The notes under the pieces were generated by a model. It was not told the origin of the DNA and searched no databases. It worked only from the letters and a program-made list of their open reading frames with translations. A program made the position numbers and the translations under genes. From a bacterium (GTDB lineage Bacteria; Verrucomicrobiota; Kiritimatiellia; CAIVKH01), in NCBI GenBank assembly GCA_043802525.1, contig JAZDKY010000075.1, forward strand, positions 267 to 64,266: 64,000 bases of DNA, in the 5' to 3' direction. This document shows, in pieces, positions 12,291 through 42,665 of the stretch. Position 1 is the stretch's first letter; each line of letters begins with the position of its first letter.

Positions 12291-12392
12291 GGCAAATTTG
12301 TCACGAATACCGTAAGGAAATGTTCAGCAAAGGTAAATTTAATACTTGTGAATATCGTCGCAGACCGTTACAGGGCAAATGATTACATCGAC

Positions 12393-13931: not shown

Positions 13932-14039
13932 TTGTTTCAACCTGCGTTGAAGGTTGCGCCCTCCGGTGTCCAAGCTGGACGCTTTCGTAATTAGTCTCAC
14001 TGCAAAGAGTTATGACTTTGCCTGATCCGCGCTCCTTTC

Positions 14040-14056
14040 TGGCATGGCACCTGCAT
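14040..14056 (+). promoter_or_regulatory. Putative sigma-54 promoter (-24 TGGCAT, -12 CTGCA), 30 nt upstream of the KTSC-ssb operon
   Basis: CTGGCATGGCACCTGCATTT has GG and GC at the canonical 10-nt spacing. It lies immediately downstream of the bEBP gene. Confidence 0.4.
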
Positions 14057-14084
14057 TTACATCCGCGCGAATGAAGGGAGTGTC

Positions 14085-14426: not shown

Positions 14427-14856
14427 CCAGGGCAATCACAAGAAACGTGCGGGCCGGAATTCGATCAACCTCGTGTTTCTGTCGGGCAACCTGACGCGGG
14501 ACCCGGTGCTGCGCCGGACCAGTTCCGGTGTCGCCCTCGCGGATATGGGGCTTGCGTTGTCCGATTCGTGGAGCAACCGGAACGGCGAGAAGGGCGAGTC
14601 GGTCTGTTTTGTCGACGTCATCGTGTGGGAACGGCAGGCGGAGGCCTGCGCGCAGTATCTGGCCAAGGGTTCGCCGGTCTTCATCGAGGGGCGCCTGCAG
14701 TTTGACGAGTGGACCGACAAGGAGGGAGCCCGCCGGAACAAGGTCAAGGTGCGCGCCGAGCGCGTCCAGTTCCTGGGCCATCCGAAATCAACCGCCGCGG
14801 GTGCGGACGTTGACGATGTGGAGGACGACGCGCCGCCGGCGAAAACGCGGCGATAG
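14412..14856 (+). CDS. ssb: Single-stranded DNA-binding protein
   Basis: INLVFLSGNLTRDPVLRRTSSGVALADMGLAL...VIVWERQAEACAQYLAKGSPVFIEGRLQ is an OB fold, and there is an acidic tail DDVEDDAPP. RBS GGAAGGA; start MGAADQ. Confidence 0.8.
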
Positions 14857-15094
14857 TTTGTGCTGACAGGTGAATGTGAGCGCCCCCTGCCGGCTTGTCC
14901 GGCAGGAGCGCCAGGTTGCTGATGGCCGCGCAGACGCAGCCATCAGGAACCGCGTTCACCCGCCTTCGCCGGCTTCGGCGCGGCAGGCTGAGCGGGGCGG
15001 CTACAACAGACAGGCGGCCGCGAAATTTGTTAACCCGCTCTGGCTCGCCGGGTTTCAAGTGCGTATTCCGGCTGGGCCGGGGGGGGGGTAGCCC

Positions 15095-21113: not shown

Positions 21114-21246
21114 GAACCCTAATCCCCGCGAACCCGACGCACGAAGAAAATATTTGTATCCATTCGCCTGGCCGTAGATCACGGGCCTCCGGCGCCACCC
21201 AGCGTCGGTAAATGTGCGCTTCGGAAAAAAATCATTTTCCGCCTTG

Positions 21247-21282
21247 ACTACATGCGTAGTCCGGATTACAGTTGTAATCATC
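21247..21282. promoter_or_regulatory. Two BlaI/MecI-type operator palindromes in the blaI-GT4 divergent promoter
   Basis: GACTACATGCGTAGTC and GATTACAGTTGTAATC carry the TACA/TGTA half-site arrangement seen in BlaI/MecI boxes. They lie 20-50 nt upstream of the blaI RBS. Confidence 0.5.
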
Positions 21283-21299
21283 ATAACGGAGGGCGTGCC

Positions 21300-21674
21300 A
21301 TGAGTGGTGTTCCGAAAATTTCCGAAGCCGAGTGGGAAGTGATGAAAGTGATCTGGGAGAAGAGCCCTGTCACGGCGCAGGACGTGATCGGGAAGCTCGG
21401 CGACCGGATGGAGTGGAGCCCGCGCACGATCAAGACGCTGCTGGGGCGGCTGGTGAAGAAGGGCGCCCTGAAGTTCGAGGCGCAGGGCAAGTCGTACCTG
21501 TACCGGCCCGGCGTGGCGATGGACAAGTGTGTGAAGGTGGAAAGCGAATCGTTCGTCGACCGCGTCTTCGGCGGCGCCGCCGCGCCGATGCTCGTCCATT
21601 TTGTGAAGAACGCGAAGCTCAGTCCCGGGGACATCCGCGAACTCCGGAAAATCCTGGAGGAGAAGAAACAATGA
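21300..21674 (+). CDS. blaI: BlaI/MecI/CopY-family transcriptional repressor
   Basis: ISEAEWEVMKVIWEKSPVTAQDVIGKL...WSPRTIKTLLGRLVKKGAL is a penicillinase-repressor winged helix. The ATGA overlap with the next gene indicates an operon. Confidence 0.8.
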   Translation: MSGVPKISEAEWEVMKVIWEKSPVTAQDVIGKLGDRMEWSPRTIKTLLGRLVKKGALKFEAQGKSYLYRPGVAMDKCVKVESESFVDRVFGGAAAPMLVHFVKNAKLSPGDIRELRKILEEKKQ

Positions 21675-23560
21675 ACACCGCGAACGCATGCTGGCACTGG
21701 CTCCTGCAGACGTCGTGGCAGGCATCGATCCTGGTGCTCCTCGTCATGGCGATCCAGCTACTACTCCGCACGAGACTCGCGCCGCGGTGGCGCTACGCGC
21801 TCTGGCTGCTGGTTGTCGCGCGACTTGTCATGCCCGCGACGCCCGCGAGTCCCTTGAGCGTGTTCAATTTCACCCGGCATGTTCTGCCCGCGTCCGCCGG
21901 GGGCATCGGCGAAGTATCGTCTGGAATGACGATCGTCAATCCGAACGATAAGTACCTTGAGGCGGCTCCGGCGAAGGAGACTGCGGGTCGGCAGCGTTCT
22001 GTCTCGTGGCACGACGGTCTGATGGTTTTATGGGCGGCGATTGCATGCGTGTTGTTTGCCCGCATGGCGTTCGGGAACTATCGGCTCTCGTCGCGCGTCT
22101 GCAAGCAGCGTCCGGTGACGAAGCAGGCGGTGTTGGACATCCTGGAGGACTGCAAACAGGAACTTCATGTGCACATACCGATCAATGTCGTGGAGTCCTC
22201 GGACGTGCAGAGCCCCGCGCTGCTCGGCTTCATCCGTCCGCGCCTGCTCCTGCCGGAGCGGATGATTCAGAACTTTGACGCGGCCGAGTTGCGCCTCGTG
22301 TTCTTGCACGAGCTGGCGCACCTGAAGCGGCACGACATCGTCTTCAACTGGCTGATCAGCGCGCTGCAGGTCCTGCACTGGTTCAATCCGCTGATCGCGC
22401 TCGCGTTCTACCGCATGCGCGTCGACCGCGAACTGGCGTGTGATTCGCTGGTGCTCTCGTTCGGCCGCGAGCAGGAGAGCCGGCGGTACGGCCAGACGAT
22501 GATCAAGCTGCTCGAATTTTCCTCAGCGCCGAAACTCGTTCCCGGGGTTGTGGGGATACTGGAGGACAGGAACGAACTCAAAGGGAGAATGACCATGATC
22601 GCTGCACATACCAAACACACGTACCAGTTTTCCGGCCTGGCCGCCGGCTTGATCCTGATACTGGGCATGACCACACTCACGGGCGCGAACGAAAAAACGC
22701 AGGCGCCGTCAGGCGTTTCGCTCGAGAACGCAAAGCCGCACTTGAATCTCGATTTCGAACTCGGTCCGCGTACCGGCACCACGTATCCCTCCGCATGGGG
22801 CGGAGGCGGCGAAGGCTATGAATTCACTGCGGATGGCGAGACGCGTCACACCGGCGGCTGGGCCGGACGCATCCATAATACTCGACCGAGTCCGGAAGGA
22901 TTCGGATCGCTGACCGCGACGCTCGCGCCGGAGACGCTGGCCGGGAAGCGCGTTCGGTTCAGCGGCTATCTGAAGCTGGCCGAGGTGACCGGGTATGTGG
23001 CGCTGTGGATCCGGGCGGACAAGCAACAGAAGCCGGTCGCCTTTCAGACGCTCCAGGGCAAAAACGTTCATGGTACCCGTGACTGGGCGGCATATACGGT
23101 CGAAGTGGAATTTCCCGCCGATATCGACAACATCAACTTCGGTGTACTGCTCGCCGGCGGCGGCACCTTGTGGGCGGACGATCTGGAGATTGAAATCGTC
23201 GGCGGCACGGTGTTCGACGCGCAGCCCGCGCAGGAGGCGCTGACCCGGTGGCTAGGCCTCGTCGACGGGGAGCGGTATGAGGAAAGCTGGGACGACGCGT
23301 CTGTCGCGTTCCGGGCCGCCGTGACGAGCGACGACTGGGTCAGGATGGTGGGCACGGTCAGGCGTCCCCTCGGCAAGGTGATCTCACGCACCATCGCCTC
23401 GTCGATACACCAGACCAACCTGCCCGGCGCACCGGACGGAGACTACGTGATCTTTCAGACCGAAACGTCCTTTGAGAAGAAGAAATCCGCGGTCGAGACC
23501 GTCACCATGATGAAGCAGGACGACGGAAGCTGGCGGGGAGCGGGCTATTTCATCCGCTGA
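21671..23560 (+). CDS. BlaR1-like M56 peptidase signal transducer with a non-PBP C-terminal sensor (DUF4019-like)
   Basis: M56 motif FLHELAHLKRHD. TM helices. The C-terminal 120 aa (EESWDDASVAFRAAVTSDDWVRMVGT...DGSWRGAGYFIR) show no penicillin-binding motifs (no SxxK). Confidence 0.7.
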   Translation: MNTANACWHWLLQTSWQASILVLLVMAIQLLLRTRLAPRWRYALWLLVVARLVMPATPASPLSVFNFTRHVLPASAGGIGEVSSGMTIVNPNDKYLEAAPAKETAGRQRSVSWHDGLMVLWAAIACVLFARMAFGNYRLSSRVCKQRPVTKQAVLDILEDCKQELHVHIPINVVESSDVQSPALLGFIRPRLLLPERMIQNFDAAELRLVFLHELAHLKRHDIVFNWLISALQVLHWFNPLIALAFYRMRVDRELACDSLVLSFGREQESRRYGQTMIKLLEFSSAPKLVPGVVGILEDRNELKGRMTMIAAHTKHTYQFSGLAAGLILILGMTTLTGANEKTQAPSGVSLENAKPHLNLDFELGPRTGTTYPSAWGGGGEGYEFTADGETRHTGGWAGRIHNTRPSPEGFGSLTATLAPETLAGKRVRFSGYLKLAEVTGYVALWIRADKQQKPVAFQTLQGKNVHGTRDWAAYTVEVEFPADIDNINFGVLLAGGGTLWADDLEIEIVGGTVFDAQPAQEALTRWLGLVDGERYEESWDDASVAFRAAVTSDDWVRMVGTVRRPLGKVISRTIASSIHQTNLPGAPDGDYVIFQTETSFEKKKSAVETVTMMKQDDGSWRGAGYFIR

Positions 23561-25757: not shown

Positions 25758-27884
25758 CTACTTCTGCTCCGCGGGCGCAGCAGCAGCGGCCTGCTGGTCC
25801 ATCTCCTCCATCGCCGCGCGGCGGCTGAGGCGGACGCGGCCGGTGTCGTCAACGTTGATGCACTTGACCCACATCACGTCGCCCATCTTGCAGATGTCGC
25901 TGACGGCCTTCACGCGGAAGTTCGCCATTTCGCTGATGTGGACGAGGCCTTCCTTGCCGGGCAGGATTTCGACGAACGCGCCGAACTCCTTGATGCTCGT
26001 CACGGTGCCCTGGTAGAGCTTGCCGACTTCGGCATCCGCGGCGACGAGGTTGACCTCGCGCACGGCGGCGTCCATCGCCTTCGCGTCGACCGCGAAGATC
26101 TTGACGGTGCCGTCGTCCTCGATGTCGATCTGGGCGCCGGTCGCGTCGGTGATGCGGCGGATGTTCTTGCCGCCCGGGCCGATGAGGGCGCCGATCTTCT
26201 CCGGGTTGATGTGGACGACCGTGATACGCGGGGCATACGGGGACAGCTCGGCGCGGGGTTCCGCGATGGTCTTCGCCATGAAGTCCAGGATGTTGAGCCG
26301 CGTCTTGCGCGCCTTTTCAAAGGCGCCTTCGACGAGGTCCCAGCGCAGGCCGCGAGTTTTCAGGTCGACCTGGAAACCCGTGATGCCGTCGCGCGTGCCG
26401 GCGACCTTGAAGTCCATGTCGCCGCAGTGATCTTCCGCGCCGAGGATGTCGACGACCAGTTCCGCCTTCTGGGCGTTGCTGAACAGGCCGATCGAGATGC
26501 CCGCGACGGGTTTGGTGATCGGGATACCCGCGTCCATCAGCGCCAGCGTGCCGGCGCAGATCGAGGCCATCGAGGAGGAGCCGTTGGACTCCATGATTTC
26601 GGAGACCAGGCGGACCGAGTACGGGTAGTCCTTCGGGATGACCGGGAGGAGCGAGCGTTCGGCCAGGTTGCCGTGGCCGATTTCGCGGCGGCTGGTCGAG
26701 CCGAGGCGGCCGGCTTCACCGACGCTGTACGGCGGGAAGTTGTAGTGCAGGAGGAAGTTCTTTTCCTTCGGGCCGCCCGCGATCGCGTCCAGGTCCTGGA
26801 CGTCGTCGCTGGTGCCCAGCGTGACGATGGCCAGCGCCTGTGTCTCTCCGCGCTGGAACAGCGCCGAGCCGTGCGTACGCGGGAGCAGGCCGACCTGCGC
26901 GTCGAGAGCGCGGAGTTCGTCGAATCCGCGGCCGCCGATGCGGAACTGCTGTTCCAGCACGAGCTTGGTCGTCGATTCGATTTCGAGCTCGTCGAAGATC
27001 TGGAAGTATTGTTCCTCGGTCGTTTCTGGCAGCGCGGCGACCACCTTGGCCTGCAGCGCTTTCTTGAGCTCGGACACCTTGTCCTGGCGTTCGAGTTTGC
27101 CGTTGATCTTGAGCGCCTCGACGAAGTCGGCGCCGCCGAGTTCGCGGACCTTGTTGAGCAGGGCGTGGTCGACCGCGGCTTCCGCGACGACCTTGGCGTC
27201 CTTGCCCACGAGCTTGCGCAGTTCAACCTGCGCGTCGCACAGCGGGACAATGTGCTGGTGGGCGAACTTCATCGCCGCGACCATGTCCGCCTCGCTGATC
27301 TCGCGCGCATTACCTTCGATCATGATCGGCAGGTCGCGGGACCCGGCGTAGATCAGGTTCAGGTCGCTCTTCTCGAGATCCGCGTGTGTGGGGTTGATGA
27401 TGAACGTGCCGTCGACTCGGCCGACGCGGGCCGCCGCGATGGGGCCGTGGAACGGGATTTCAGAGAGCATCAGCGCCGCGCTGGCCGCCGTGATGCTCAG
27501 GATGTCGGAGTCGTTCTCGCCGTCCGCGCAGAGGAGCAAATTATTGATCTGCACGTCGTTGCGGTGGTTGGACGGGACGAACGGGCGCAGCGGGCGATCG
27601 GTGACGCGCGCGGTCAGGATTTCCTTTTCCGACGGACGCGCCTCGCGCTTGAAGTAGCCGCCGGGGAATCGGCCGGCCGCGTAGTATTTTTCGCGGTATT
27701 CGACCTGGAGCGGGAAGTAGTCGACGCCTACGCGCGGCTTTTTCGTGGTGGTGACGGCGGAGAAAACGATCGTTTCCCCGAGCTGGACGGTGACGGCGCC
27801 ATCGGCCTGTTTGGCGAGGAGCCCGGATTCGATCCGGATGACCTTGCCGCCGACGTTAACTTCTACGAATTTTGCGTTCTTCAT
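25758..27884 (-). CDS. pnp: Polynucleotide phosphorylase
   Basis: Start [21 protein letters not shown] with RBS AGGAAG. Two RNase PH domains, KH and S1 ([20 protein letters not shown]). Confidence 0.95.
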
Positions 27885-28086
27885 ATGTCTTCCTGTGTTG
27901 CCCGGTTCGAGGTCACGCGGAGCGTGACCCTCCCGCCTTCGTTTCAATCGCGTCGCGCGCGATTTCAACTACGGCGTGGCTCGCCGTAGCTTGCCGAAGC
28001 GGAGGCGGCCGGAGGGACGCGCAAAGCGCGGCCGTTGCGTTGAAGAAAGACACTCCGAAAAATCGTGGCTGGCGGAGAGGGCAGGA

Positions 28087-28350
28087 CTACCGACGCAGGC
28101 CGAGGCGGTCGATGAGCTTGTGATAGCGCTCTTCGTCCGTCCGTCCGAGGTAATCGAGTAAGCGCCGGCGCTGGCTGACCATCACAATCAGGCCACGGCG
28201 AGAGCTATGATCCTTCATGTGACCCTGCAAATGCCCGGTCAGATCCTTGATGCGCTGGCTGAGAAGGGCTACCTGCACCTCGACAGAACCCGTGTCCTTG
28301 TCGTGCTGCGCGTATTCCTTCTTGATTGTCGCTTTGTCAGCGGTCTGCAT
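28087..28350 (-). CDS. rpsO: 30S ribosomal protein S15
   Basis: 87 aa, [34 protein letters not shown]. The rpsO-pnp operon order is conserved. Confidence 0.95.
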
Positions 28351-28674: not shown

Positions 28675-29433
28675 ATGCCCGGTGAGAACAACGATTTTTC
28701 CAACACGATGCGGTTCGAGATCCCGCCGGAACTCCTGCGCGAACTGCAGCAGCAACCGAAGAGCAAGGCCACGGGTATCCACCAGCCTCCCAAGCCGACG
28801 CCCACGGCTGCGATTCGAATAGTCCGCAACAACAAGCCTGCTACGAAGTCGCTCTTCTCCCAGTTGCTGGAGAGCATCTATGACGGATGCCTGATTACCG
28901 ATCTCAAAGGGACCATTGTTGACGCCAACCCGCGCGTCCTGGGGTTCCTCAGGCAGACCCTGGAGGATGTGAAGGGACTGAGCGTGCCGCACCTGATTTC
29001 CGGCTCCGACGACAAGCTCGTTCCGTCCATTCGCGAAACCCTCGAGAGCGATCGCTTCGTCTTGTTCCAGGCGTACTGTACGCGGAGTGATCGATCGCTT
29101 TTCCCTGCCGAGATCTCGGTGAACATCCTGGACGGGGATGAGCGGCGTCTCTGCTTCTTTGTCCGCGACATCACCGAACGCAAGCGGGCGGAAGCGGAAC
29201 GCGAAAAGCTGATCCGTGAACTTCAACAGGCCATCTCCGAGGTCAAGACCCTGAGCGGACTGCTGCCCATCTGTGCCGCCTGCAAGCGTGTACGCGACGA
29301 TGGCGGGTATTGGAACCAGATCGAGACGTACATCAAGAGCCACTCAGGGGTGCAATTCAGCCACGGCCTGTGTCCGGAGTGCATCTCCAAGCTGTACCCG
29401 GACTATGAAGAAGATCCCCCTGCGAACACGTGA
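28675..29433 (+). CDS. PAS-domain protein with a conserved Cys-rich C-terminal motif
   Basis: PAS core plus the C-terminal LPICAACKRVRDDGGYWNQIETYIKSHSGVQFSHGLCPEC. Confidence 0.6.
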   Translation: MPGENNDFSNTMRFEIPPELLRELQQQPKSKATGIHQPPKPTPTAAIRIVRNNKPATKSLFSQLLESIYDGCLITDLKGTIVDANPRVLGFLRQTLEDVKGLSVPHLISGSDDKLVPSIRETLESDRFVLFQAYCTRSDRSLFPAEISVNILDGDERRLCFFVRDITERKRAEAEREKLIRELQQAISEVKTLSGLLPICAACKRVRDDGGYWNQIETYIKSHSGVQFSHGLCPECISKLYPDYEEDPPANT

Positions 29434-30110: not shown

Positions 30111-31943
30111 TCAAGGATGCTTCGCTGCGAGTTGGGCCCAGAATTCCCCTGCCGTCTGTTTCCACCCATCCGGCTCCGTGGCGATGTACTGCAACGACGG
30201 ATGGTTGTGCAGGAAGTCGATGGATGAAAACTGTTCCGGCAACAGGAGTCGCACCAGGGAATGGATCTCGGCCAGGGGACCGAGATCCGTGATGTTGCGG
30301 CATTGCCACAGCGAAAGTTCCTGGAGCGGAAGTTGGCTGAGCGAGCGGAGGTCGGCAACGGGGGTGTCGTTGAGCACGAGCTTCTCGATGGGTAGGCCTT
30401 CGAGCGGGGCCAGGTTTGTGACGCTGGTGCTCTGCATGCGCAATTCGCGGACGGGGATTTGATGAATCGGCGCGATGTCGACGAGCGCTTTGTTGCCGCT
30501 CATGTCGATGGACACGAATCCGTCCTTGATTCGATAGAAAACCTGAAAGTGGTCAAGATCGGGGTTGGCCTTTTCCAGCGCGTCAATGACTTCGTTCACG
30601 GCCTGATCATCGGCCGGCGCGGGGGGGGACCCGCCGGGAACCGCAAGGGTGAATTTCTCGTAGTATACCTGTAATGCCTCCTCGGGCTGTTGCGTCGCGT
30701 TCGTTTGAACTACGGGTTCCGGCGTCACGGATGGCGGCGCGAGCGATGCCGAGATGTCGTTGCGTTTGCCGCGGAGTGAAACGGCCACGACGATCACGCA
30801 ACCTGCGAGAACCGCGACGCCTGCGGCGACGATGTAGGGCTTGAGCGACCAGCGCTTTTCGCCGGCTCGCTGAGCGGTTGACGGCTCGACACCGGCCTTT
30901 GGCGCAACCTGTATCAGCGGCGCGTGCGACGAGTGGTGCGGCGAGCTGTGCGACGGCGGTCCGAACCCCCGCATGTTGGTCTGCTTCTTCACGGTACCCG
31001 ACTCAAGCAGGGATTCAATTTCGGCGATCGCTTCCGTCCAGCTCGGGAAACGCTCTTCGCGGTCCGGCGCCATCATCTTGAGAATGAGGCGCTCGCAGGC
31101 GGGCGACACATCGGGATTCAACTGACGCACGTTCGGCGCCGGTTCGATCGTCTTTCGCGTCAGCACTTCGGTCACCGTCGTGCCATTGTGGGGCAGGGCT
31201 CCGGTCAGCAGGTGGAACAGCGTGGCGCCCAACGCGTATTCATCCGATCGAAAATCCAGGTCATGTTGCCCGCGTGCCTGCTCTGGACTCATGTAGTTCG
31301 GCGTGCCGAAGGCCACGCCTTCCATGGACAGGCTCGTGTCCTCCACGACGCACTTCGAGAGGCCCATGTCCATCACTTTCACCTCGCCGTTGCGGTCGAT
31401 CATGATGTTCCCGGGTTTCACGTCGTTGTGGAGAATCTGGTGGTGTTCCCATGCGTAGGCCAGGGCCAGCGCCGCCTTTGCCGCGACGGCGAGCGCTTCC
31501 TGCTCGGGGATGCGTTTCTCTTCCTCCAGACGCTGGCCGAGATCCTTCCCTTCCACATAGGTCATGGCCAGGTAGTAGACGCCGTCGTACTCACCAGCCT
31601 CAAACGCGGTGACCAGGTTGGGGTGTTCCACGCGGGCGAGCAGACGGATCTCGCGTTGGAATCTTGAGATCAGATTCTTATCCGCTGTGATTTCGGAAGG
31701 CATGATCTTGAGCGCGACCTTCCGGTCCATGGACAGCTGCGTTGCGACAAACACTTCGCCCATGGCGCCGCGGCCGATGGATTTCTCCACCCGAAATCCG
31801 CCGATGACCGCTCCAGTACCGATCCCGTACAACGGTGTCTCCACGGAGCTGCCACATCTGGCGCACAGGATATGCGTCGGCAGCATGCGGGCGTGCACCT
31901 TGATAGGGTTCCCGCACGAGGGACACTGGAACATGATAAGCAT
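30111..31943 (-). CDS. Ser/Thr protein kinase with an N-terminal zinc ribbon, one TM helix and a C-terminal LRR-like domain
   Basis: CPSCGN...CARCG. Kinase subdomains (VALKIM, HNDVKPGNIMI, DMGLS, YMSPE). TM helix YIVAAGVAVLAGCVIVVAV. Confidence 0.85.
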   Translation of the reverse strand: MLIMFQCPSCGNPIKVHARMLPTHILCARCGSSVETPLYGIGTGAVIGGFRVEKSIGRGAMGEVFVATQLSMDRKVALKIMPSEITADKNLISRFQREIRLLARVEHPNLVTAFEAGEYDGVYYLAMTYVEGKDLGQRLEEEKRIPEQEALAVAAKAALALAYAWEHHQILHNDVKPGNIMIDRNGEVKVMDMGLSKCVVEDTSLSMEGVAFGTPNYMSPEQARGQHDLDFRSDEYALGATLFHLLTGALPHNGTTVTEVLTRKTIEPAPNVRQLNPDVSPACERLILKMMAPDREERFPSWTEAIAEIESLLESGTVKKQTNMRGFGPPSHSSPHHSSHAPLIQVAPKAGVEPSTAQRAGEKRWSLKPYIVAAGVAVLAGCVIVVAVSLRGKRNDISASLAPPSVTPEPVVQTNATQQPEEALQVYYEKFTLAVPGGSPPAPADDQAVNEVIDALEKANPDLDHFQVFYRIKDGFVSIDMSGNKALVDIAPIHQIPVRELRMQSTSVTNLAPLEGLPIEKLVLNDTPVADLRSLSQLPLQELSLWQCRNITDLGPLAEIHSLVRLLLPEQFSSIDFLHNHPSLQYIATEPDGWKQTAGEFWAQLAAKHP

Positions 31944-32230
31944 GGCTGCGGCAGCCTCTTCTGACGAAGAAGCATACCTCGGGCGTGGGGAGGGTTAAGG
32001 GAAATCTTGCCATGCGGGCGCTGCAAGGCTTGCGCCGAAGACCGGGTCATGGTCACGGACTTGTGCAATGGCGGTCTGGAAAGGCGTTTGGGAAGGTGGC
32101 AGAACGGCCCCGTCAGAGGGGATCCTGTTCGTACAGCAGGCTTTCCTTCCCGGCTGTGGAGGAGATGATCATTCCACCTGGAAGGTCGAATCGTGCCCGT
32201 GCTTTTCTGGCGGGCAAAACGCGCACGGCA

Positions 32231-34168
32231 TTATTGCGCGGCCGCAGGACCGGTCGATTCTTCAAGCCAGAGCGAGCCCGCGGGGTGTACGGAGGAGGCA
32301 TCAGACCACGCGGGGGCGAATTCGCTCTGCATGTCGCCAATCGCGACGGCCTGGGCCGTGCCCACTTTCTTCTTCCTGGGCGAAGCCGTCGGTTTGCTGT
32401 CCGTGCCGGCGCGTTCGATGAGGGCAAAGGTCATGCCGGTGTCGATACCGTGAAAGTTTCCGAGCCCTGCATCAAGCAGGCCGTCGCGTTCCTGGAGCAC
32501 ACGCGCGGTCAGCGGTTTCATTTCCTGCGCCTTGCGCACGATGTCGTCCGCAAGGCGCTCGCACACATCCGGCAACTGGTCGCGATTTTCGGCGTGGGCG
32601 GTGAACGAGGCCAGTATGCGTGTCGTTTCCGTGTCCACGAGGCGCACGTACACATCGAGGCCCTGGCCGCGCGGGATGATGTCTCCGAGCAGCATGAGGC
32701 TTGCGGGAAGCAACTTGCCGATCGCCAGCCCGGCGTCCTTGTCCGCGAGCGGTGACGTCCCGATATTCAATTCGGCCAGCAGATCCTCCAACGCCTCGCG
32801 CTCCACGACGCGGAACGACGCATGGGTCTCGATCCGCGCGCGCAGGCAGATTCTCGCCAGGTGGGCCAGCGATTCCGTTTCAGCGGAGGCGTCGGTGCTG
32901 GAAGGCCCGAAGCAGGCGAGCACGCGCGGCCGCGCGTACAGGTCTTGCCCGCTGCTTTCGCCCTGCGCTTTGGAGGCGGCGTTCTTCTCGATGCGATCGA
33001 CGAGTTCCCGGATTTCGCTGCGCTCCTTCTCACGGTTGTCGTCGCGCACAAAGGCGGCGATCGCCTTTACAAGCCCGTCCTCAGCATGGCTGCTGAGCAG
33101 CGAGGAGGCAATCTGGCCGGCGCTTTGCTCCGCGCCCTGCTGTTTCATCAGGACCGCATCCTGCATCAGCTGGACCTTGCTGGCCGGGGGCTCGCCGCCC
33201 GACGATTTTTCGTCCGGCGCGTTGACGCCGCGATGGGGAGACACGGAGGCCAGGCGCTTTTCCTCTTCGGGCCATTCGACGCTGGCATTCCTCGCGACAA
33301 AGACGAACTCGCCGCCGGCGTGCGTGCTGACGGCCATGGGGCCCATCCGAACGAGTTGCCCGGTCAGCGTGCTTACTTTTTCGCGGAGCGCGAAGCCGAT
33401 GTCCGACGCCGAAAAGACGAGGCGGTCGGTATGTTCGAGGAAGTTCAGCAGCTCCTGTGCGAAAACGCTGTGGCGCTCCCCGGAATCCATGACCGGTTCA
33501 AGGTCGCCGCTGGTGATCAGATAACGCGACGGCGCACGGATGGCCCGCGCATACCACTGGAAGTCCTCTTCGAGAACGGGCGTTGCCCCGCCGCGGAAGA
33601 GCGATCCGCCATAGCACGAATCCGCGACAACCAGCACGTGGCGCGCCCGGGAAGCGGCGATGATCTTGGTGAGCATCGAATTCCATATCCAGTCGGCCTT
33701 GGCAGAGCGTTTCCCGTCGGTCTTTTTCCCGTCGGCGGGAATCCAATAGCCTTCGCCGAGGGATTCGTCGTACTGGCCGTGACCCGCGAAATAGATGAGG
33801 ACCGCGTCATCCGGCGTGAGGTTGACCAGGTCGTCCATGGCCTGGATAATGTGTGCCCGTGTAGCCTCCCGGTCGAGGAGGCGCGTAACGTTGAAGCCGT
33901 ACTTCTTCGCAAGAACGTCGGCCACGGCCTCGGCATCCCCGCGAGCCGTCACGAGGGAGTCCCATCCTTCAGCGCCGAACTTCTCGTAATCGCTGATACC
34001 GATGACCAGTGCGTGGTAACGGGGCATGACTTGCGGACCCGACTGTTGTGTGACGGGTTCGGGAGGGGGCGTTCCGCGTACGGCGGGGCGCTTTTCCCTG
34101 GTGCAGCCGGAGACAAGGATCCCCAGGCCGACGACGATCAGCAGACCATGTTTTGTTTTAGCGCGCAT
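32231..34168 (-). CDS. Periplasmic caspase-family (C14) peptidase lipoprotein with a C-terminal CsgG/LpoB-like domain
   Basis: Lipobox LVSGC. Caspase His-Cys dyad motifs YFAGHG and VVADSCYGG. The C-terminus VVEREALEDLLAELNIG...AIGKLLPASLMLLGDI resembles the CsgG/LpoB fold. Confidence 0.7.
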   Translation of the reverse strand: MRAKTKHGLLIVVGLGILVSGCTREKRPAVRGTPPPEPVTQQSGPQVMPRYHALVIGISDYEKFGAEGWDSLVTARGDAEAVADVLAKKYGFNVTRLLDREATRAHIIQAMDDLVNLTPDDAVLIYFAGHGQYDESLGEGYWIPADGKKTDGKRSAKADWIWNSMLTKIIAASRARHVLVVADSCYGGSLFRGGATPVLEEDFQWYARAIRAPSRYLITSGDLEPVMDSGERHSVFAQELLNFLEHTDRLVFSASDIGFALREKVSTLTGQLVRMGPMAVSTHAGGEFVFVARNASVEWPEEEKRLASVSPHRGVNAPDEKSSGGEPPASKVQLMQDAVLMKQQGAEQSAGQIASSLLSSHAEDGLVKAIAAFVRDDNREKERSEIRELVDRIEKNAASKAQGESSGQDLYARPRVLACFGPSSTDASAETESLAHLARICLRARIETHASFRVVEREALEDLLAELNIGTSPLADKDAGLAIGKLLPASLMLLGDIIPRGQGLDVYVRLVDTETTRILASFTAHAENRDQLPDVCERLADDIVRKAQEMKPLTARVLQERDGLLDAGLGNFHGIDTGMTFALIERAGTDSKPTASPRKKKVGTAQAVAIGDMQSEFAPAWSDASSVHPAGSLWLEESTGPAAAQ

Positions 34169-36266
34169 AAATAAAGTCCCCCACATGCACAAGGTCTCTG
34201 CCCTCAACCGGCCGGATGTCCGCTGTCCCTGCCGAATCATCAACATCCTTCACACGAAGTTGCACAAGCGATTTGTCCAGGGTGCAAAGGTCTCCGTCCT
34301 CCATGGGCGCCGTGTCGGACGCCGGGCGGATGACGAGGAACCGCGCGCCGTTCAGCACGCCATGCTGTGAGCCCACGTTGATGACCGCGCGGCTCCTGCG
34401 GATACCGGTCACTTTTCCCTCTACGAGCGGGAAACGCTGCTCGAGCTTGACGATCAGGCCGGCCACCTTGGTTTCCAATTCCCGATCCAGCGCCTCGCTG
34501 TACACGTCGTCCAGCGCCAGGGTCTCGCCGGTTTCGGCGTCGGCAATCACCGCGTAGATGGTCGTGCCCGCCCCGAGGGGAATCACAGAGCCCACGAGGA
34601 AAAGTTCAGCGGGCAACACCTTGCCGAGTTGCAGCAGCGCGCGCGGGTCCGCAAGATCGGATACGGCAAGCCGCTGTTCACGCAGAATCAGATCCCAGCC
34701 CTCGGCCCGTTCAACCAGGAAGAACCGGGCCGGATCGCGTGTCAGTTCAAGCTCGGCCCGCCGCCTGATCGATGGCCCGAGGTCGCCGGTACCCTCGCGA
34801 TTGCAGAGGAAGGGCGGCATGACGAGCGACATGCGGTAGTGGCGATCGAGATACGCGGGCACCTTGCGGATGGCGATGACCGTGCGGCGCGCGACATGGC
34901 CCTGGCTGTCGCGGGCACTCACGACGATGGTGTTCGTCCCGACGTTGAGCGGGATGCGTCGCGCAAGACTGTACGTCACGGCGCCGCGATCGCCTTGGTC
35001 CAGCGTTTCCTCATCCCGGATGCGGACGCTGTCCAGGCCGTTTGCGTCGGCGACCGATCCCTCCAGGATCAATTCCTCGTTGAAGACGCATACGGTGTCG
35101 GGCACGCCGAGCCGGATCTCGGGTGCTTGGTCGTCCGGCGGCTTGGACCCGCCGGACGACGCGGGCACATCGGCGATACCGCCCGCGTCAGCGGCGGCAT
35201 AGCGGAGCATCGCGGCCGCGCTGACGACAGGGGCGAACAGGGATGCGGAAAGTTCCGTGGTGAAGGTGTTGCCCGCCGTGTCCACGGCGTCGAACATCAG
35301 GCTCTCGCCGTCGCGAAACCGGAGGCTCAGGGGCAGTGTGGATCCCGGGTTCTTTTCATCCAGCAGCGTGGCCGTCGTGGCCGCATTTCGCACCGTCACG
35401 CGGGCAAGCCGGCGATCGTCGTTGCACCGGCCTTCCAACAGCCACTCGGAGCCCCGCTTTGACGCTCGCAGGATCAGCAGGGCGGGCGGGCGCCAGTCCG
35501 CCATCCACGTTTGCGAGGTCATGGTGTGGTGTCCGCCGAGGTCGGATACCGCGATGCGAATCTCGTTCGAGCCCTCCTGGAGCGTGACGGTCCGGGAGAA
35601 CGGCATGTTTGTCGACGCGAGTTCGATGAACTGGGGCCGTCCGTTGATGACGATGTCGCTGACGTAGCCTTCGCCGGCCGCGGTTCCGGAAATCGTCCTG
35701 CTCCGGTCGCGTGTCCACACAACCCGCGAGGCGGCGTCGAGTTTCACGGAAGGCGTCGTCGTGCGTCCGCCCTCGATATGGCGTTTGCGCGCGAGGTTCA
35801 GGTAGTGCTTGGCCCGGCCCGAAGGCGTCTGGGCGAGCGACGCGCTCAGCCAGCGGATGGCCTGCGTGTCATTGCCCAGCACGTAGTAGCAGACACCCAG
35901 TTCCCGGTGGGGAAAATACTGTTCCTGGAAATGAAGGCCGTAGGTTCGCGCCCGCCACAGATCTTTTGGAAAGGAATACGTCGCGCCGGATCGGAGACCG
36001 AGGCACCGTTCGAAGTCCTTGCGCGCGCGTTCGGCGTTGCCCGCGGCAACCTCGTCGAGGCCCCGTTGGTAGAAGTTCCACCAATTATGATGACGCAGTG
36101 TCGTCACGTCCGCTTTCTCCCCTGACGTCCCCGTGTTGCACGCCGCCATTCCCGCCGCGGCAACGATGGCCAGAAGGATGGTCCGAACCCATTTCCCGGA
36201 CCCGGCTCCAGGGACCTTCCTGCCATTCCGTTGTTCACGTCTACTCGATGTAATCTTGTGTCCCAT
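34158..36266 (-). CDS. Large lipoprotein with N-terminal TPR, Ig-like middle and C-terminal CsgG/LpoB-like domains
   Basis: Lipobox AAGMAAC. C-terminus FFLVERAEGWDLILREQRLAVSDLADPRALLQLGKVLPAELFLVGSVI is paralogous to the C-terminus of the caspase protein. Confidence 0.55.
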   Translation of the reverse strand: MGHKITSSRREQRNGRKVPGAGSGKWVRTILLAIVAAAGMAACNTGTSGEKADVTTLRHHNWWNFYQRGLDEVAAGNAERARKDFERCLGLRSGATYSFPKDLWRARTYGLHFQEQYFPHRELGVCYYVLGNDTQAIRWLSASLAQTPSGRAKHYLNLARKRHIEGGRTTTPSVKLDAASRVVWTRDRSRTISGTAAGEGYVSDIVINGRPQFIELASTNMPFSRTVTLQEGSNEIRIAVSDLGGHHTMTSQTWMADWRPPALLILRASKRGSEWLLEGRCNDDRRLARVTVRNAATTATLLDEKNPGSTLPLSLRFRDGESLMFDAVDTAGNTFTTELSASLFAPVVSAAAMLRYAAADAGGIADVPASSGGSKPPDDQAPEIRLGVPDTVCVFNEELILEGSVADANGLDSVRIRDEETLDQGDRGAVTYSLARRIPLNVGTNTIVVSARDSQGHVARRTVIAIRKVPAYLDRHYRMSLVMPPFLCNREGTGDLGPSIRRRAELELTRDPARFFLVERAEGWDLILREQRLAVSDLADPRALLQLGKVLPAELFLVGSVIPLGAGTTIYAVIADAETGETLALDDVYSEALDRELETKVAGLIVKLEQRFPLVEGKVTGIRRSRAVINVGSQHGVLNGARFLVIRPASDTAPMEDGDLCTLDKSLVQLRVKDVDDSAGTADIRPVEGRDLVHVGDFIYAR

Positions 36267-37035
36267 GGCCCAATTGTGCGAGATCCTCAACGATTTGCCG
36301 GCCGTAGTCGTAAACCCTTGCGCGGAAGGATTGCGCGTCAGCGTAGTTCTTCAGCCATTCCTTGATCGGCTTTTCGCCTTTCGACTTGTACGCCTGCACC
36401 TGGACGGCCAGCCTGCCCGATTCAAGCTCCTGGATGCGGGTGCTGAGCACCCAGCCCGGCCAGACCGTCCTATCGCGGTTGGCCAGGTACCGGAACTCGT
36501 CCTCGACCGATGCGCGCAACGAACTGGTCAGTTCCGTCATGTCCGCGCGCGTGTACCTCGGCAACGCTTCCTCGCCGCCTGCGCCGCGGTATTTGGCCTG
36601 CTGGATGATCTCGACTTCCCACACAAACGCGGGTGTTTGCATCTGGCGTACGCCCACCACGGCGACGATGCCGCATGCGGCGGCGGCAAAGGCGAGGCGT
36701 ACCGGTTTGTTGAACTGGAAGTGGGGGCGTCGGCTTGCGGGTTTAAGCACCACGGAGTTCCGGCGGATGGATGGGTTGCCCCTATCGCCTTCATTGGCCT
36801 GCCCCGCATCCCACGCTGCCAGAACGCGTTCCTGCAGCTCTTCTTCGCTGACAGAAGCGAACGGCGCCAGTCTTCGCAGCTCCCGGTCGCAATCCTGTAC
36901 TTCGCCGACAAGGGCCCGAATCGCTCCGTCGTGGCTCATGCGTCCCTCAAAGTCCTGCCGTGCATCTTCGCCCAACTCGCCGTGGACAAAGGTCCAGGCC
37001 TTCTCGCTATTCGGTTTTTCGTTGTTTGTATTCAT
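36241..37035 (-). CDS. Putative anti-sigma factor (single-pass membrane protein)
   Basis: Immediately downstream of the ECF sigma gene. Central TM VRLAFAAAACGIVAVVGV. Assignment is by context. Confidence 0.45.
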   Translation of the reverse strand: MNTNNEKPNSEKAWTFVHGELGEDARQDFEGRMSHDGAIRALVGEVQDCDRELRRLAPFASVSEEELQERVLAAWDAGQANEGDRGNPSIRRNSVVLKPASRRPHFQFNKPVRLAFAAAACGIVAVVGVRQMQTPAFVWEVEIIQQAKYRGAGGEEALPRYTRADMTELTSSLRASVEDEFRYLANRDRTVWPGWVLSTRIQELESGRLAVQVQAYKSKGEKPIKEWLKNYADAQSFRARVYDYGRQIVEDLAQLGHGTQDYIE

Positions 37036-37047
37036 AATCTCTGTTTC

Positions 37048-37674
37048 CTACTGGCTAGAGTCGAAGCCCGAGTCAGTTTCTTCCCTAAAAAATACATGAC
37101 TTTTCATCAAGGACCTGAGTTTCTCGAGGCACTTGCTCAGGCGGGTGCCGACCGTATTGATGGAAATGCCTGCGGATGAGGCTATTTCCTTATAAAGCGT
37201 GCCTTCGAAGTAGAACGATCGGATGGCCGAACTGCACGGTTCGCCGATCTCCTCGAGCATCTGACGGACGGCTGCCGCACGCTCAAACAGCACAATCTGC
37301 ATGACCGGGTCATCTCCGGGTCCGGACGTGGTGGGCACATTCACGATGTCCCCGTCCGCGTTGACCGTCTGCATCGCCACGGTGAATCGGCCGGCGCGGA
37401 CCTGGCGGCGGATCTCATCGATGATCCGGTGAATGCAGATCTTCTTGACGAAGTATTCCACGGTTGCCGCTTCCTTGATCTGGCCGATCGATCGTACAAT
37501 CTCCTGTCGTATGCTTTGGGCAACATCTTCTCGGGTATGGGCGTCGAGGTGCCACTTTCCCCAGGCAACGACGGAGCGGATCAAGGGGTCGAACTGTTCG
37601 AAGAACTGATCCCACGGGGGCTCACGCCCTTCGCGCAGAGCGGCGATGAACTCGGCGATTTCGCGCTTCTCCAT
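37048..37674 (-). CDS. ECF-family RNA polymerase sigma factor
   Basis: Region 2 (DVAQSIRQEIVRSI..YFVKKICIHRIIDEIRR) and region 4 (LYKEIASSAGISINTVGTRLSKCLEKLR). Start MEKREIAEF. Confidence 0.8.
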   Translation of the reverse strand: MEKREIAEFIAALREGREPPWDQFFEQFDPLIRSVVAWGKWHLDAHTREDVAQSIRQEIVRSIGQIKEAATVEYFVKKICIHRIIDEIRRQVRAGRFTVAMQTVNADGDIVNVPTTSGPGDDPVMQIVLFERAAAVRQMLEEIGEPCSSAIRSFYFEGTLYKEIASSAGISINTVGTRLSKCLEKLRSLMKSHVFFREETDSGFDSSQ

Positions 37675-37688
37675 GTGGCTTTCGGTCT

Positions 37689-37717
37689 GCAATCCGCGTG
37701 CGGGGCACGCGGATTGC
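37689..37717. promoter_or_regulatory. Perfect 13-bp inverted repeat GCAATCCGCGTGC-GGG-GCACGCGGATTGC in the leader/promoter of the ECF sigma operon
   Basis: Lies 15-45 nt upstream of the sigma start codon. A GGAAC box follows at 37720-37724 (minus strand). Confidence 0.45.
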
Positions 37718-37872
37718 GCGTTCCTGTTGCCCGGTCGCGCGGTCATCCCGCCAGGGAACAACGATTGTTCGACAACAAGATGAACGCGCCAAACGACGTA
37801 AATATATACTACTACCTACTTCATAACCCGCGATGCACGGGGTATAAAGAACGTTTTAAGAGGAGGTGTTCC

Positions 37873-39681
37873 ATGAGGTTGAGCCTATCCGTGCAGTCCT
37901 ATTGTCAGATCGTCGTCTGGTACAGCCGGTGGTTCCGACGATGCTCGAGCGCCATGAGCCTGATGTTGCTCGCGCTGTTTTTCGCCTTTTCCGTCGCGGG
38001 ATCGCGCGCGGAAGAGTTTGTCATTCTCACGCCGACCGGGCCCATACTCGTGGACATCCCGCACGTGGGTCCCAGCGGAAGCCTCGTGGAAGCCGCGTCG
38101 CCCGAGAGCCCGGCCTTCCGGCCCCCGAGTATTTTTTCCGCGCCGCTGCCCAGCGGCTCGGGCGCCAGGGCTTTGGGCCTGGCCGGAGCGTTCACGGCGG
38201 TCGCGGATGATGCCACCGCGGCTTCGTGGAATCCTGCCGGGTTGATCCAGCTCGAAACGCCCGAGGCGTCGTTCATGCTGCGCGCCTCGCGGGAGACCCA
38301 GAAGCACCACTCAGGCAGCGAAAGCCTGACGGTGGGCGACGACGAGTTCGAGAACTATACGTTGAACTATCTTAGCGGGGTTTACCCGTTTCACGTCGGC
38401 GAACGGAACTTTGTGTTTTCCCTGAACTATCAGGAAGCGTACGACTTTAACCAGAAGTTCACGGCCGACTTCACGGATACCGCGTCCCGTTCGGCGGGCA
38501 GCACGACGTCCGACACCTATCACGAAACGCTCACCGACCACTACGAGGATGAATACTCGGAGGTCGATCTGACCAGCGAGGTCACGACAAAGCTGGTCAG
38601 TTCCGTCGACCAGATCATCGGTTCCGATCTGTTGACGGCCCTGGATTTCGATCAGCAGGGGATCATCGAGGCGTTCACGCCCTCGATGGCGGTGGAGATT
38701 TCGCCGAAGCTTTTCCTGGGCGCGTCCTTCAACTACTACCAGGACAGCGCGCTCGATCCCATCCGGTCCTCCACGCGCGCGAAATATTCGGGTCGGACCG
38801 ACAGCTCCGCGGGGATCACCGACGTCAGGACCACGTCGGGGACGTACACGTACACCGGCGTGTTCAAGCCGCCGCTGGGCGGACCCGACGTTCCGTTCGG
38901 CCCTGACTACGGCATCTACCGTCCGTTCAGCGATACGACGGAAAGCGGCATGGCGGACGGTGTGGAAGTCGACGGCGAATATGAGGAGATCAACGAGTTC
39001 GACGATCTTGAAGGGTACAACGGTACGTTCGGTTTCCTCTGGACCGTGTCGCGTTACCTGAGCCTGGGCGGTTCCGTGGATCTGCCTTGGGTGGCCAAGG
39101 CCAGCCAGGAAAAGACTGTCCGCAATACCGTGACGACGTTCAATGATACGCGGACGGAAGTGCTCGACGTGACCTCGACGGAAGACGTGCAGGGAAAGGG
39201 CGTCGAATTCGAGTTCCCTCTGTACTGGGCGCTCGGAAGCGTCATCCGGCTGAACGACCGGCTGTACACGAGTTTCGATGTCAGCAAGACATACTGGTCC
39301 GACTTTTCGTTCCAGGCCGAGGGTGAGGAGAAAATCAATCCGCTGGACGGCACGCCGTACGGGGAGAATAAGGTGGACGATTGCTGGTCCGTGCGCGGCG
39401 GTATTGAATACCTGCTTGTCCTGACCAGGACGGAAATCCCGTTCCGCGGCGGCGTGGCGTGGGAACAGCGCCCGGCCGTCGGCGCTCCGGACGAATACTG
39501 GAGCTACAGCCTCGGGTCCGGCGTTTCGATCGGAAAAGGCGACCGGAAACTCATCATCGACATCGCCTACGTACTTACGTGTGCGGATGACGTTCTCGGA
39601 AGCCTCGTGCCGCAGCAGGGAGATCTCACGTCGGATGTCGTTGAGCACCAAGTATTTCTGTCGTGCATCCGACATTTCTAA
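37873..39681 (+). CDS. Outer-membrane transport protein, OMPP1/FadL/TodX family
   Basis: RBS AGGAGG. Signal peptide. N-terminal hallmark SGARALGLAGAFTAVADDATAASWNPAGL. Beta-strand-rich with aromatic C-terminus ...VFLSCIRHF. Confidence 0.7.
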   Translation: MRLSLSVQSYCQIVVWYSRWFRRCSSAMSLMLLALFFAFSVAGSRAEEFVILTPTGPILVDIPHVGPSGSLVEAASPESPAFRPPSIFSAPLPSGSGARALGLAGAFTAVADDATAASWNPAGLIQLETPEASFMLRASRETQKHHSGSESLTVGDDEFENYTLNYLSGVYPFHVGERNFVFSLNYQEAYDFNQKFTADFTDTASRSAGSTTSDTYHETLTDHYEDEYSEVDLTSEVTTKLVSSVDQIIGSDLLTALDFDQQGIIEAFTPSMAVEISPKLFLGASFNYYQDSALDPIRSSTRAKYSGRTDSSAGITDVRTTSGTYTYTGVFKPPLGGPDVPFGPDYGIYRPFSDTTESGMADGVEVDGEYEEINEFDDLEGYNGTFGFLWTVSRYLSLGGSVDLPWVAKASQEKTVRNTVTTFNDTRTEVLDVTSTEDVQGKGVEFEFPLYWALGSVIRLNDRLYTSFDVSKTYWSDFSFQAEGEEKINPLDGTPYGENKVDDCWSVRGGIEYLLVLTRTEIPFRGGVAWEQRPAVGAPDEYWSYSLGSGVSIGKGDRKLIIDIAYVLTCADDVLGSLVPQQGDLTSDVVEHQVFLSCIRHF

Positions 39682-42588: not shown

Positions 42589-42665
42589 CGGAGCGTAGCG
42601 CAGCCTGGTAGCGCGTCAGCCTTGGGCGCTGAAGGTCGAGAGTTCAAATCTCTCCGCTCCGACCA
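42589..42665 (+). tRNA. tRNA-Pro (anticodon TGG)
   Basis: Cloverleaf: acceptor CGGAGCG/CGCUCCG, D-arm GCGC..GCGC, anticodon stem UCAGC/GCUGA with loop CUUGGGC, T-arm GAGAG-UUCAAAU-CUCUC, 3' CCA encoded. 77 nt. Confidence 0.85.

Follow-up and report, generated by a model that had tools for sequence, protein, structure and literature searches.

The locus described here raises the question of what a caspase-like lipoprotein does in an operon headed by the genes for a sigma factor of the extracytoplasmic function (ECF) type and a putative membrane-bound anti-sigma factor. It lies in a window of 64,000 nucleotides of contig JAZDKY010000075.1 (assembly GCA_043802525.1), from a bacterium placed in CAIVKH01 of the Kiritimatiellia, and all coordinates given below are those of the window. 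An earlier annotation made from the letters alone, called here the sequence-only reading, reported five genes between 30111 and 37761, all carried on the minus strand, and saw in them a module for envelope stress or regulated proteolysis. Comparison of homologous loci leaves hardly any doubt that a recurring gene order, consisting of a divergent outer-membrane beta-barrel gene followed by genes for the sigma factor, the anti-sigma factor, a lipoprotein with tetratricopeptide repeats (TPR) and immunoglobulin-like (Ig-like) domains, and the caspase lipoprotein, constitutes a single lineage-specific cassette. The arrangement recurs in about 45 loci. The barrel gene, at 37876-39681 on the plus strand, is a further conserved component that falls outside the interval originally reported.

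The loci compared were obtained from genomic-context look-ups and from a scan in which each GTDB species was represented by one genome. They include 53 with a full gene for the caspase and its C-terminal module, and each of the following counts is limited to loci with enough upstream flank; components were recognised by BLAST at 1e-5, so that the counts are lower bounds. The TPR gene lies directly upstream in 41 of 44 loci, the anti-sigma gene is found upstream in at least 33 of 42 (three more were recognised by eye) and the sigma gene in 34 of 38, while the divergent barrel gene is present in 27 of 34. Full-length members came only from metagenome-assembled genomes (MAGs) labelled Kiritimatiellae, Lentisphaerae or "Verrucomicrobia" and from the cultured Tichowtungia aerotolerans, which has the same cassette at about 1.488-1.495 Mb of CP047593.1; among the genomes scanned, the cassette is confined to the Kiritimatiellota and Lentisphaerota. 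Several genomes house two to four copies, for example Lentisphaerae GWF2_57_35 (loci L007, L021, L032 and L048). All five components correlate in their pairwise distances (r 0.74-0.93, with the value for TPR against caspase protein being 0.93), which indicates inheritance and diversification of the cassette as a whole, shared phylogeny also contributing to the correlation. Relatives of the caspase in other phyla bear Ig-like, PEGA, FGE-sulfatase, BNR or DctP domains in their extracytoplasmic parts, and the CsgG-like module discussed below was found in none of ten that were sampled. In three loci (L015, L028 and L029) the sigma and anti-sigma genes are both missing, and the TPR-caspase pair is itself the divergent neighbour of the barrel gene; in two of these, L015 and L028, the caspase protein is fused to a Toll/interleukin-1 receptor (TIR) domain. 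One further locus, L056:4967-9951 on a 3.1-Mb contig of Kiritimatiellae MH-Pat, has the whole cassette split into many short open reading frames (ORFs), either by pseudogenisation or by frameshift errors in a long-read assembly.

Within the window the genes are tightly packed. The sigma gene has its longest ORF at 37048-37761, starting from TTG at 37761, but the likelier start is the ATG at 37674 (MEKREIAEF...), which gives a product of 208 residues encoded by 37048-37674. A gap of 12 nucleotides separates it from the gene for the 264-residue anti-sigma factor (36241-37035). The longest ORF for the TPR-Ig lipoprotein is 34158-36290; its likely start, the ATG at 36266, overlaps the anti-sigma stop by 26 nucleotides. 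For the caspase gene, with its longest ORF at 32231-34246, the likely start is the ATG at 34168, which yields a protein of 645 residues (32231-34168) with the N-terminus MRAKTKHGLLIVVGLGILVSGC, containing a lipobox. This start overlaps the end of the TPR-Ig gene (TAA at 34158-34160) by 11 nucleotides, so that the overlap of the two lipoprotein genes noticed in the sequence-only reading is confirmed. The kinase gene (30111-31943, minus strand) had been described as lying immediately downstream; it is in fact 287 nucleotides away from the caspase gene.

The identification of a caspase His-Cys domain in the second lipoprotein was correct. The YFAGHG and ADSCYGG motifs are both present, and profile searches for the two domains that had been named matched Peptidase_C14 (PF00656, 61.1 bits against a cut-off of 21.4, E 1.6e-16) at residues 78-283 and, as a partial match, CsgG (PF03783, 39 bits against a cut-off of 20.8, E 7.1e-10) at residues 470-524. 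Among the best 120 of 527 homologues, on which the conservation counts for this protein are based, the dyad H130 (AGHG) and C185 (DSC), in mature numbering, is invariant (120/120), as is Asp183, which precedes the catalytic Cys by two positions. The full-length protein, as modelled with AlphaFold2 (pLDDT 82.6, pTM 0.79), has, in order, a signal peptide, a disordered tether, the caspase domain (50-291), a linker, four helices (331-401), an alpha/beta domain resembling the middle (M) domain of FlgT (416-550) and a small barrel (554-637). The closest structure to the modelled caspase domain in Foldseek is MALT1 (3v4o_A, E 1.3e-8, TMt 0.68), followed by Geobacter GSU0716 (9e-8) and by caspases 3, 7 and 9 (about 1e-5). 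The sequence itself is very divergent: 3bij (E 8e-4) is the only match to this domain in a sequence search of the PDB, and the best NCBIfam caspase match, to an EACC1-associated type, is below its cut-off. Profile and model together place the protein in family Peptidase C14 of clan CD, with the caspase/hemoglobinase fold, and conservation of its catalytic residues suggests that the protease is probably active. In Arg-specific MALT1 and in metacaspases, an Asp at the Cys-2 position forms part of an acidic S1 pocket, the pairs of S1-pocket Asp and catalytic Cys being D211/C213 in TbMCA2 and D462/C464 in MALT1; by analogy, therefore, the cassette protease would be expected to prefer Arg or Lys at P1. 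The window protein has a lipobox and signal peptide, other homologues are anchored by a transmembrane (TM) helix with the N-terminus inside, and the C-terminal module contains a pair of Cys residues conserved among homologues, all of which fit location of the caspase domain in the oxidising periplasm. Fold, dyad and Asp at Cys-2 are thus held in common with MALT1, GSU0716 (3bij) and the prokaryotic metacaspases or orthocaspases (PMC3501461), but the cassette caspase differs from MALT1 and GSU0716 in that it is part of a periplasmic lipoprotein which also contains a FlgT-like module.

The other lipoprotein (34158-36266) contains the TPR and Ig-like regions that had been read from its sequence, with Pfam matches to TPR_2 (4e-5), to the Ig-like Glucodextran_B (1.1e-9) and to FlgT_C (4e-4). 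Its predicted layout is TPR repeats, about three Ig-like domains, a FlgT-M/LpoB-like domain and then a FlgT-C-like beta-barrel. Translation from the ATG at 36266 provides a lipobox, AGMAAC, about 14 residues ahead of the conserved HHNWWN motif, and a lipobox is found in 67 of 99 homologues. The deposited version of the protein (P0121, 649 residues, MTTLRHHNWW...) begins past the signal peptide that is found in nearly all homologues.

The C-terminal motif FxVER...LGKLLPA that the two lipoproteins were said to share is present in both, and their C-termini are paralogous (34% identity over 145 residues, E 2e-15). The further proposal that this shared region is a CsgG/LpoB-like domain holds at the level of fold; the closest match is instead to the M and C domains of FlgT, so that there are two domains, and pore features are lacking. 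The C-terminal 241 residues of the caspase protein, modelled separately with AlphaFold2 on a 57-sequence alignment (pLDDT 89.3, pTM 0.83), show an alpha/beta domain of about 135 residues, in the order beta-alpha-beta-alpha-alpha-beta-beta-beta-alpha, followed by a small separate beta-barrel. When this module is compared with the PDB in Foldseek, the top match is FlgT (3w1e, E 4.3e-11 over 284 columns, at 12-13% identity), and FlgT as a chain of the flagellar LPHT ring (8z5n) is matched as well. TolB N-domains (about 1e-6), CsgG (1e-6), PelC (3e-5), LpoB (4q6l, 4e-5; 4q6z, 1e-4), GNA1162 and the PelBC structure 9h80 are also recovered; the suggested comparison with LpoB and CsgG thus does give matches to both, with FlgT ranking above them. 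Profile searches of the PDB with the cassette families returned FlgT-type matches at E 0.02 and 0.23, and the profile of the TPR family found consensus TPR (1e-7), LpoB (0.02) and FlgT (0.23), each at the expected position. Distant members of the TPR family carry Pfam CsgG and PF13036. The module is accordingly modelled as FlgT M+C-like, within the TolB-N/CsgG/PelC/LpoB fold, of which several members build periplasmic rings under the outer membrane.

With FlgT, a periplasmic, ring-forming component of the Vibrio flagellar H-ring, the module has in common a TolB-N-like domain and a small beta-barrel; it differs in its low identity, in the lack of the FlgT_N domain and in being fused to a caspase or to TPR-Ig regions. 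An identity as a flagellar H-ring protein was rejected, since FlgT_N is absent and the loci inspected contain no flagellar genes. CsgG, PelC, LpoB and TolB-N have the same alpha/beta fold (Foldseek 1e-6 to 1e-4); these comparators are lipoproteins, two of which, CsgG and PelC, assemble into rings. The reading of the module as a true CsgG secretion pore was likewise rejected: only positions 46-99 of PF03783 are matched (54/210), the TPR paralogue has no CsgG match, and the predicted alpha/beta domain contains no long hairpin insertion and so no room for the transmembrane hairpins of CsgG. There is no curli, Pel or PBP1b context either, as no curli genes (csgE/F or csgA/B) were found in the window cassette or in the homologous loci inspected, and the cassette contains no gene for a penicillin-binding protein.

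The 601-residue product of the divergent gene has a signal peptide and is predicted to be an outer-membrane beta-barrel of the FadL/TodX/PorV type, on the basis of a Pfam match to Toluene_X (38.6 bits against a cut-off of 29.7). Matches to BamG and PorV/PorQ are weak and below their cut-offs, and a search of the PDB with the barrel sequence gave no match. Taken together with the module fold, which is like that of ring lipoproteins such as CsgG and PelC that partner secretion barrels, this would suit a reading in which barrel and lipoproteins make up an outer-membrane machine for transport or processing, comparable to PelB/PelC and PorV/PorU, with the caspase trimming cargo or surface proteins and the sigma pair doing no more than regulate expression. 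A combination of TPR, ring and barrel would resemble PelBC, the cassettes that lack a sigma pair fit readily, and ECF operons often carry their own target genes. No conserved cargo gene was seen in the loci inspected, however, and an effector would not be expected to be present as up to four paralogues, each having a sigma and anti-sigma factor to itself. For these reasons, and for two others which emerge below from the anti-sigma factor and from the variable ends of the caspase protein, this reading is considered unlikely.

That the lipoprotein genes follow those for an ECF sigma factor and a putative membrane anti-sigma factor is upheld. The sigma factor, of group 4 and with regions 2 and 4 only, exceeds the cut-off in TIGR02937 (66.7 bits against 42.9) and in Sigma70_r4_2 (26.3 against 25.7), with region 2 matched weakly, and none of the ECF subgroup models reaches its cut-off. 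A phosphorylation-dependent sigma factor of the ECF43 type was considered and rejected: such factors lack the acidic residues of the DAED motif, and these are retained here (..TREDVAQ..), as judged from the sequence. The assignment of the 264-residue protein as a single-pass anti-sigma factor, and so as a putative binder of the sigma factor, depends on family alignments together with a weak match to the NCBIfam antisigma model NF052375 (E 5e-5, 23 bits, under its cut-off of 100); no Pfam model matched at E <= 0.1. A homologue with 64% identity, P0242, contains zf-HC2 and matches the same NCBIfam model at E 2.8e-19. The N-terminal helix WTFVHGEL has the family form W.YVHGEL, typical of class I anti-sigma domains, and this helix and a single TM segment are conserved in all aligned homologues.

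In the window protein the TM segment is at about 112-130, and is followed by a periplasmic stretch W139...Y149-R150-G151 and then by a domain of about 110 residues. The corresponding family motif, W-x10-(Y/F/L)-R-G, is periplasmic, at a distance of about 20 residues from the membrane. Exhaustive searching for the family with HMMER produced no more than 166 representatives, of which 131 are full-length, with about 28% identity; at the position of R150 these have Arg in 128, Lys in two and Asn in one, which makes it the best-conserved extracytoplasmic residue. The motif occurs also in cassettes in which the caspase is fused to a kinase. A transport or processing machine would leave this nearly invariant Arg unexplained. 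In two loci (L001:5421-5936 and L004:5423-5941) an extra gene for about 171 residues, absent from the window, lies between the anti-sigma and TPR genes, and its product is paralogous to the anti-sigma periplasmic domain (BLAST 4e-11 and 9e-9).

The intergenic region between the sigma and barrel genes (37675-37875) was where the sequence-only reading had sought the signals by which the sigma factor drives the lipoprotein genes. The 13-nucleotide palindrome that it described does exist, as a perfect repeat at 37689-37701 and 37705-37717 occurring once in the window, with GGAAC at 37720-37724; but neither is conserved in 39 homologous regions upstream of sigma genes, and no regulon can be called from the promoter patterns of the window, whether GGAAC, palindrome or the relaxed ECF-like pattern GGAA-N17-19-CGAC, which is not enriched (20 matches against 12.9 expected). 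What is conserved upstream of the sigma genes is a different promoter-like element, so that the claim of the sigma factor driving the lipoproteins finds no backing in the GGAAC box or the palindrome. A Gibbs search of 40 upstream regions retrieved GTCG-N17-19-TT(C/A)CC, usually followed by TAnnnT, the full element being GTCG-N17-19-TTCCC-N9-14-TAnnnT. The strict motif is present in 12 of 40 loci against 0.3 expected in shuffles, and together with the TAnnnT box in 10 of 40 against 0.007; on the other strand it never occurs. The window holds no clean copy, only a degenerate one (GTCG-N18-TTGTC). Read forward, the motif contains TTCyTT-N17-TAnnnT, like a promoter of the housekeeping type directed towards the sigma operon; read in reverse it becomes GGGAAG-N17-CGAC, like an ECF promoter that points towards the barrel gene. 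Loci without an upstream barrel gene (L002, L006 and L030) have the motif too, and therefore either orientation is possible.

The most variable part of the cassette is the N-terminus of the caspase protein, which was classified among the top 120 members of the family. About 40 of these have a signal peptide and lipoprotein character, as in the window; at least 31 have a TM helix preceded by a short motif, MSTPD...GVNAWKVNRxGLxPP; about 24 have a TIR domain and a TM helix; and at least five have a Hanks-type kinase domain and a TM helix. The short cytoplasmic peptide, more fully MSTPD...G(G)VNAWK(V/L)NRxGLxPP, is seen in P0016, P0019, P0021, P0024-P0027 and others, for example at L031:9524-11377; the TIR-fused members likewise begin MSTPD, and the peptide is a possible docking or phosphorylation site. 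Where one periplasmic region stays constant and the cytoplasmic signalling domains joined to it vary, the pattern is that of a sensor input, rather than of a mere regulated product, and repeated fusion to cytoplasmic kinase or TIR domains would again be unexpected of an effector.

These fusions bear also on the window kinase. Its 610 residues comprise an N-terminal CxxC-N16-CxxC zinc ribbon, a Hanks-type Ser/Thr kinase domain (PF00069, 161 bits, E 4.8e-47), one TM segment and a periplasmic domain resembling leucine-rich repeats (LRR), for which the match to LRR_4 (6e-4) and those to internalin-like proteins are weak; zinc ribbon and LRR-like tail had both been recognised previously. The caspase protein has a kinase domain fused to its N-terminus in P0003, P0052, P0073, P0086 and P0089 and in loci L001, L017, L036, L037 and L039. 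A kinase gene adjoins the cassette in L004 and L028 as well as in the window, and none does so in Tichowtungia or in most loci, so that the partnership of kinase and cassette is facultative: the kinase is adjacent, absent or fused. That the window kinase is only a neighbour is a real possibility, if still on the doubtful side, and one compatible with every other model. The gap of 287 nucleotides, the rarity of an adjoining kinase and the differing extracytoplasmic domains of such kinases (LRR in the window, FGE-sulfatase in L004) speak for it; the kinase-caspase fusions speak against it, as do the kinase genes that follow related caspase genes in other phyla. In four loci from Gammaproteobacteria and Desulfobacterota MAGs (L066, L075, L079 and L081) a Ser/Thr kinase gene comes directly after a related caspase gene, which shows that the pairing of caspase and kinase reaches beyond the PVC cassette; in L066, L075 and L081 the caspase protein contains the Ig-like Glucodextran_B domain.

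The interpretation tentatively favoured, although it falls short of being probable, is that the cassette is an envelope sensor whose caspase-like protease cuts the anti-sigma factor and so frees the sigma factor. It agrees with the general idea of a regulated-proteolysis module in the envelope put forward in the sequence-only reading, and everything in it beyond the joint conservation of the genes is what we infer. The barrel and the two lipoproteins would constitute the extracytoplasmic sensor, the lipoproteins pairing or oligomerising through their paralogous FlgT/CsgG/PelC-type modules, possibly as a ring; such pairing is proposed because the two genes are translationally coupled, the proteins co-evolve (r = 0.93) and the modules are paralogous. 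A signal at the outer membrane would gather the caspase domains and activate them by proximity. The protease, MALT1-like in its Asp at Cys-2, could then make the site-1 cleavage in the anti-sigma factor at the juxtamembrane Arg150-Gly151, after which intramembrane proteolysis would release the sigma factor to switch on the barrel gene, the operon or both. In homologues with a TM anchor and an N-terminal kinase or TIR domain the periplasmic event might in addition be relayed directly to the cytoplasm, and in the window the separate kinase would serve as that relay. In its most specific form, which is doubtful but worth stating, this makes the caspase a paracaspase-like site-1 protease in an induced-proximity signalosome, built of lipoproteins between the FadL-like barrel and the inner membrane, with sigma factor, kinase and TIR domain as interchangeable outputs.

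Several considerations weigh against such a sensor. Assignment of the substrate rests on one conserved Arg and on reasoning about the S1 pocket by analogy with TbMCA2 and MALT1, and instead of being cut, the W...RG motif could serve in docking or have a structural role. That the module forms a ring is an extrapolation from FlgT, CsgG and PelC. The cassettes in L015, L028 and L029 are without sigma and anti-sigma factors, from which it follows that the trio of barrel, TPR and caspase proteins is able to work without the sigma pair. The promoter motif can be read in both directions and the window copy is degenerate; and the window kinase, at its distance from the caspase gene, could be an unrelated neighbour, kinases being abundant in such genomes.

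There are precedents for parts of the proposed sensor. The RseA/DegS/RseP and FecA-FecR-FecI (Prc/RseP) systems, as the cassette is predicted to do, couple an ECF sigma factor to a single-pass anti-sigma factor with a periplasmic domain, and the cassette further resembles cell-surface signalling in the co-encoding of an outer-membrane barrel and in the periplasmic protease proposed to start the cascade. It differs in that its protease would be a clan CD caspase-like enzyme, where the RseA and Fec systems use the serine proteases DegS and Prc; in that its barrel is FadL/PorV-like rather than a TonB-dependent transducer; and in the addition of two FlgT-like lipoproteins. The Pfam search of the anti-sigma factor gave no FecR-type match at E <= 0.1, and signalling of the Fec type is thus an analogue only. 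MALT1, the closest structure to the caspase domain, works in a signalling complex and is activated there through induced proximity. A parallel in chemistry is the type III-E Craspase, whose caspase-like protease Csx29, of the TPR-CHAT type, cuts Csx30, by which a sigma factor of the ECF type is inhibited (PMC10028731). Both have a clan CD protease and TPR repeats, and cleavage of a sigma inhibitor, described for Craspase, is proposed for the cassette; but Craspase (Cas7-11, CASP-sigma) is cytoplasmic, RNA-guided and CRISPR-linked, with TPR and CHAT protease on one polypeptide, whereas the cassette belongs to the envelope, has no cas genes, and has a C14 protease with a separate TPR protein. 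CHAT proteases have also been found in the genomic context of ECF54 (PMC8999054), and operons of metacaspase and sigma factor were noted in 2012 in Myxococcus and others (PMC3501461).

A Myxococcus defence island is governed by an ECF sigma/anti-sigma pair (PMC11506125), and this lends some colour to the suggestion that the cassette is an envelope-triggered device for anti-phage defence or abortive infection, with caspase, TIR and kinase as its death or defence effectors, set off when a phage attacks the cell surface. PADLOC models do match the caspase (1.2e-14) and the kinase (PD-T4-6, 3e-77), but these matches (which for the kinase include mad6) are to generic domains, with none for the sigma factor, anti-sigma factor or TPR protein, and no complete known system is assembled. 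The TIR fusions match TIR models of Thoeris and Pycsar, the below-threshold EACC1-associated match would be in keeping, and L002 adjoins AbiEii-like and TCAD9 genes; the cassette keeps its gene order in ordinary chromosomal surroundings in two phyla, among them positions beside housekeeping genes, the window has no mobile-element hallmarks, and sensor NTPases are absent. A periplasmic caspase would, moreover, be far from cytoplasmic targets. A role in such conflicts is thus judged improbable.

The sequence-only reading held the fusion of an orthocaspase to an LpoB-like domain to be an undescribed architecture. It is not unique, since more than 500 database proteins share the caspase and CsgG-like architecture, many of them annotated automatically as "caspase family protein" with Pfam C14 and CsgG; no paper describing the architecture or the cassette was found in the literature, the ECF re-classification paper included, so that the cassette itself is apparently undescribed. 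The caspase-like protease and FlgT-like lipoproteins may be new parts within regulated anti-sigma proteolysis and trans-envelope signalling. If so, the caspase-like class of clan CD would join the short list of enzymes that initiate anti-sigma degradation, and bacterial caspase homologues, most of which have neither, would gain a concrete physiological role and a candidate substrate. The cassette would then be a bacterial envelope counterpart of the caspase and paracaspase signalling platforms, and a modular envelope sensor with three cytoplasmic outputs (sigma factor, Hanks-type kinase and TIR domain) would bear on the origins of caspase and TIR signalling. Members of the Kiritimatiellota and Lentisphaerota degrade polysaccharides and possess ECF sigma factors and kinases in large numbers; few of their regulatory systems have been studied, and this multi-copy family of putative sensors may rank among their main environmental input devices.

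The remainder of the window has the character of an ordinary chromosomal setting rather than of a mobile element, as indicated by a polynucleotide phosphorylase-like ORF (736 residues) and an rpsO-like ORF, both read from their translations, at 25758-28350 on the minus strand, and by a tRNA-Pro(TGG) at 42589-42665 on the plus strand. At 9930-23560 there is an envelope and polysaccharide cluster with genes for a sulfotransferase, a sigma-54 activator, glycosyltransferases of families GT2 and GT4 and a sulfatase; a BlaR1-type M56 peptidase with DUF4019 is encoded at 21332-23560 (plus strand). The gene at 56109-57950 (minus strand) specifies the B subunit of topoisomerase VI (Topo-VIb_trans 5.9e-55, with HATPase_c), an enzyme that is uncommon in bacteria. 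Finally, a PAS-domain protein of 252 residues (28675-29433, plus strand) ends in a Cys-rich tail, ...CAACKRVRDDGGYWNQIETYIKSHSGVQFSHGLCPEC, which has no Pfam match and is possibly a zinc-binding output module.

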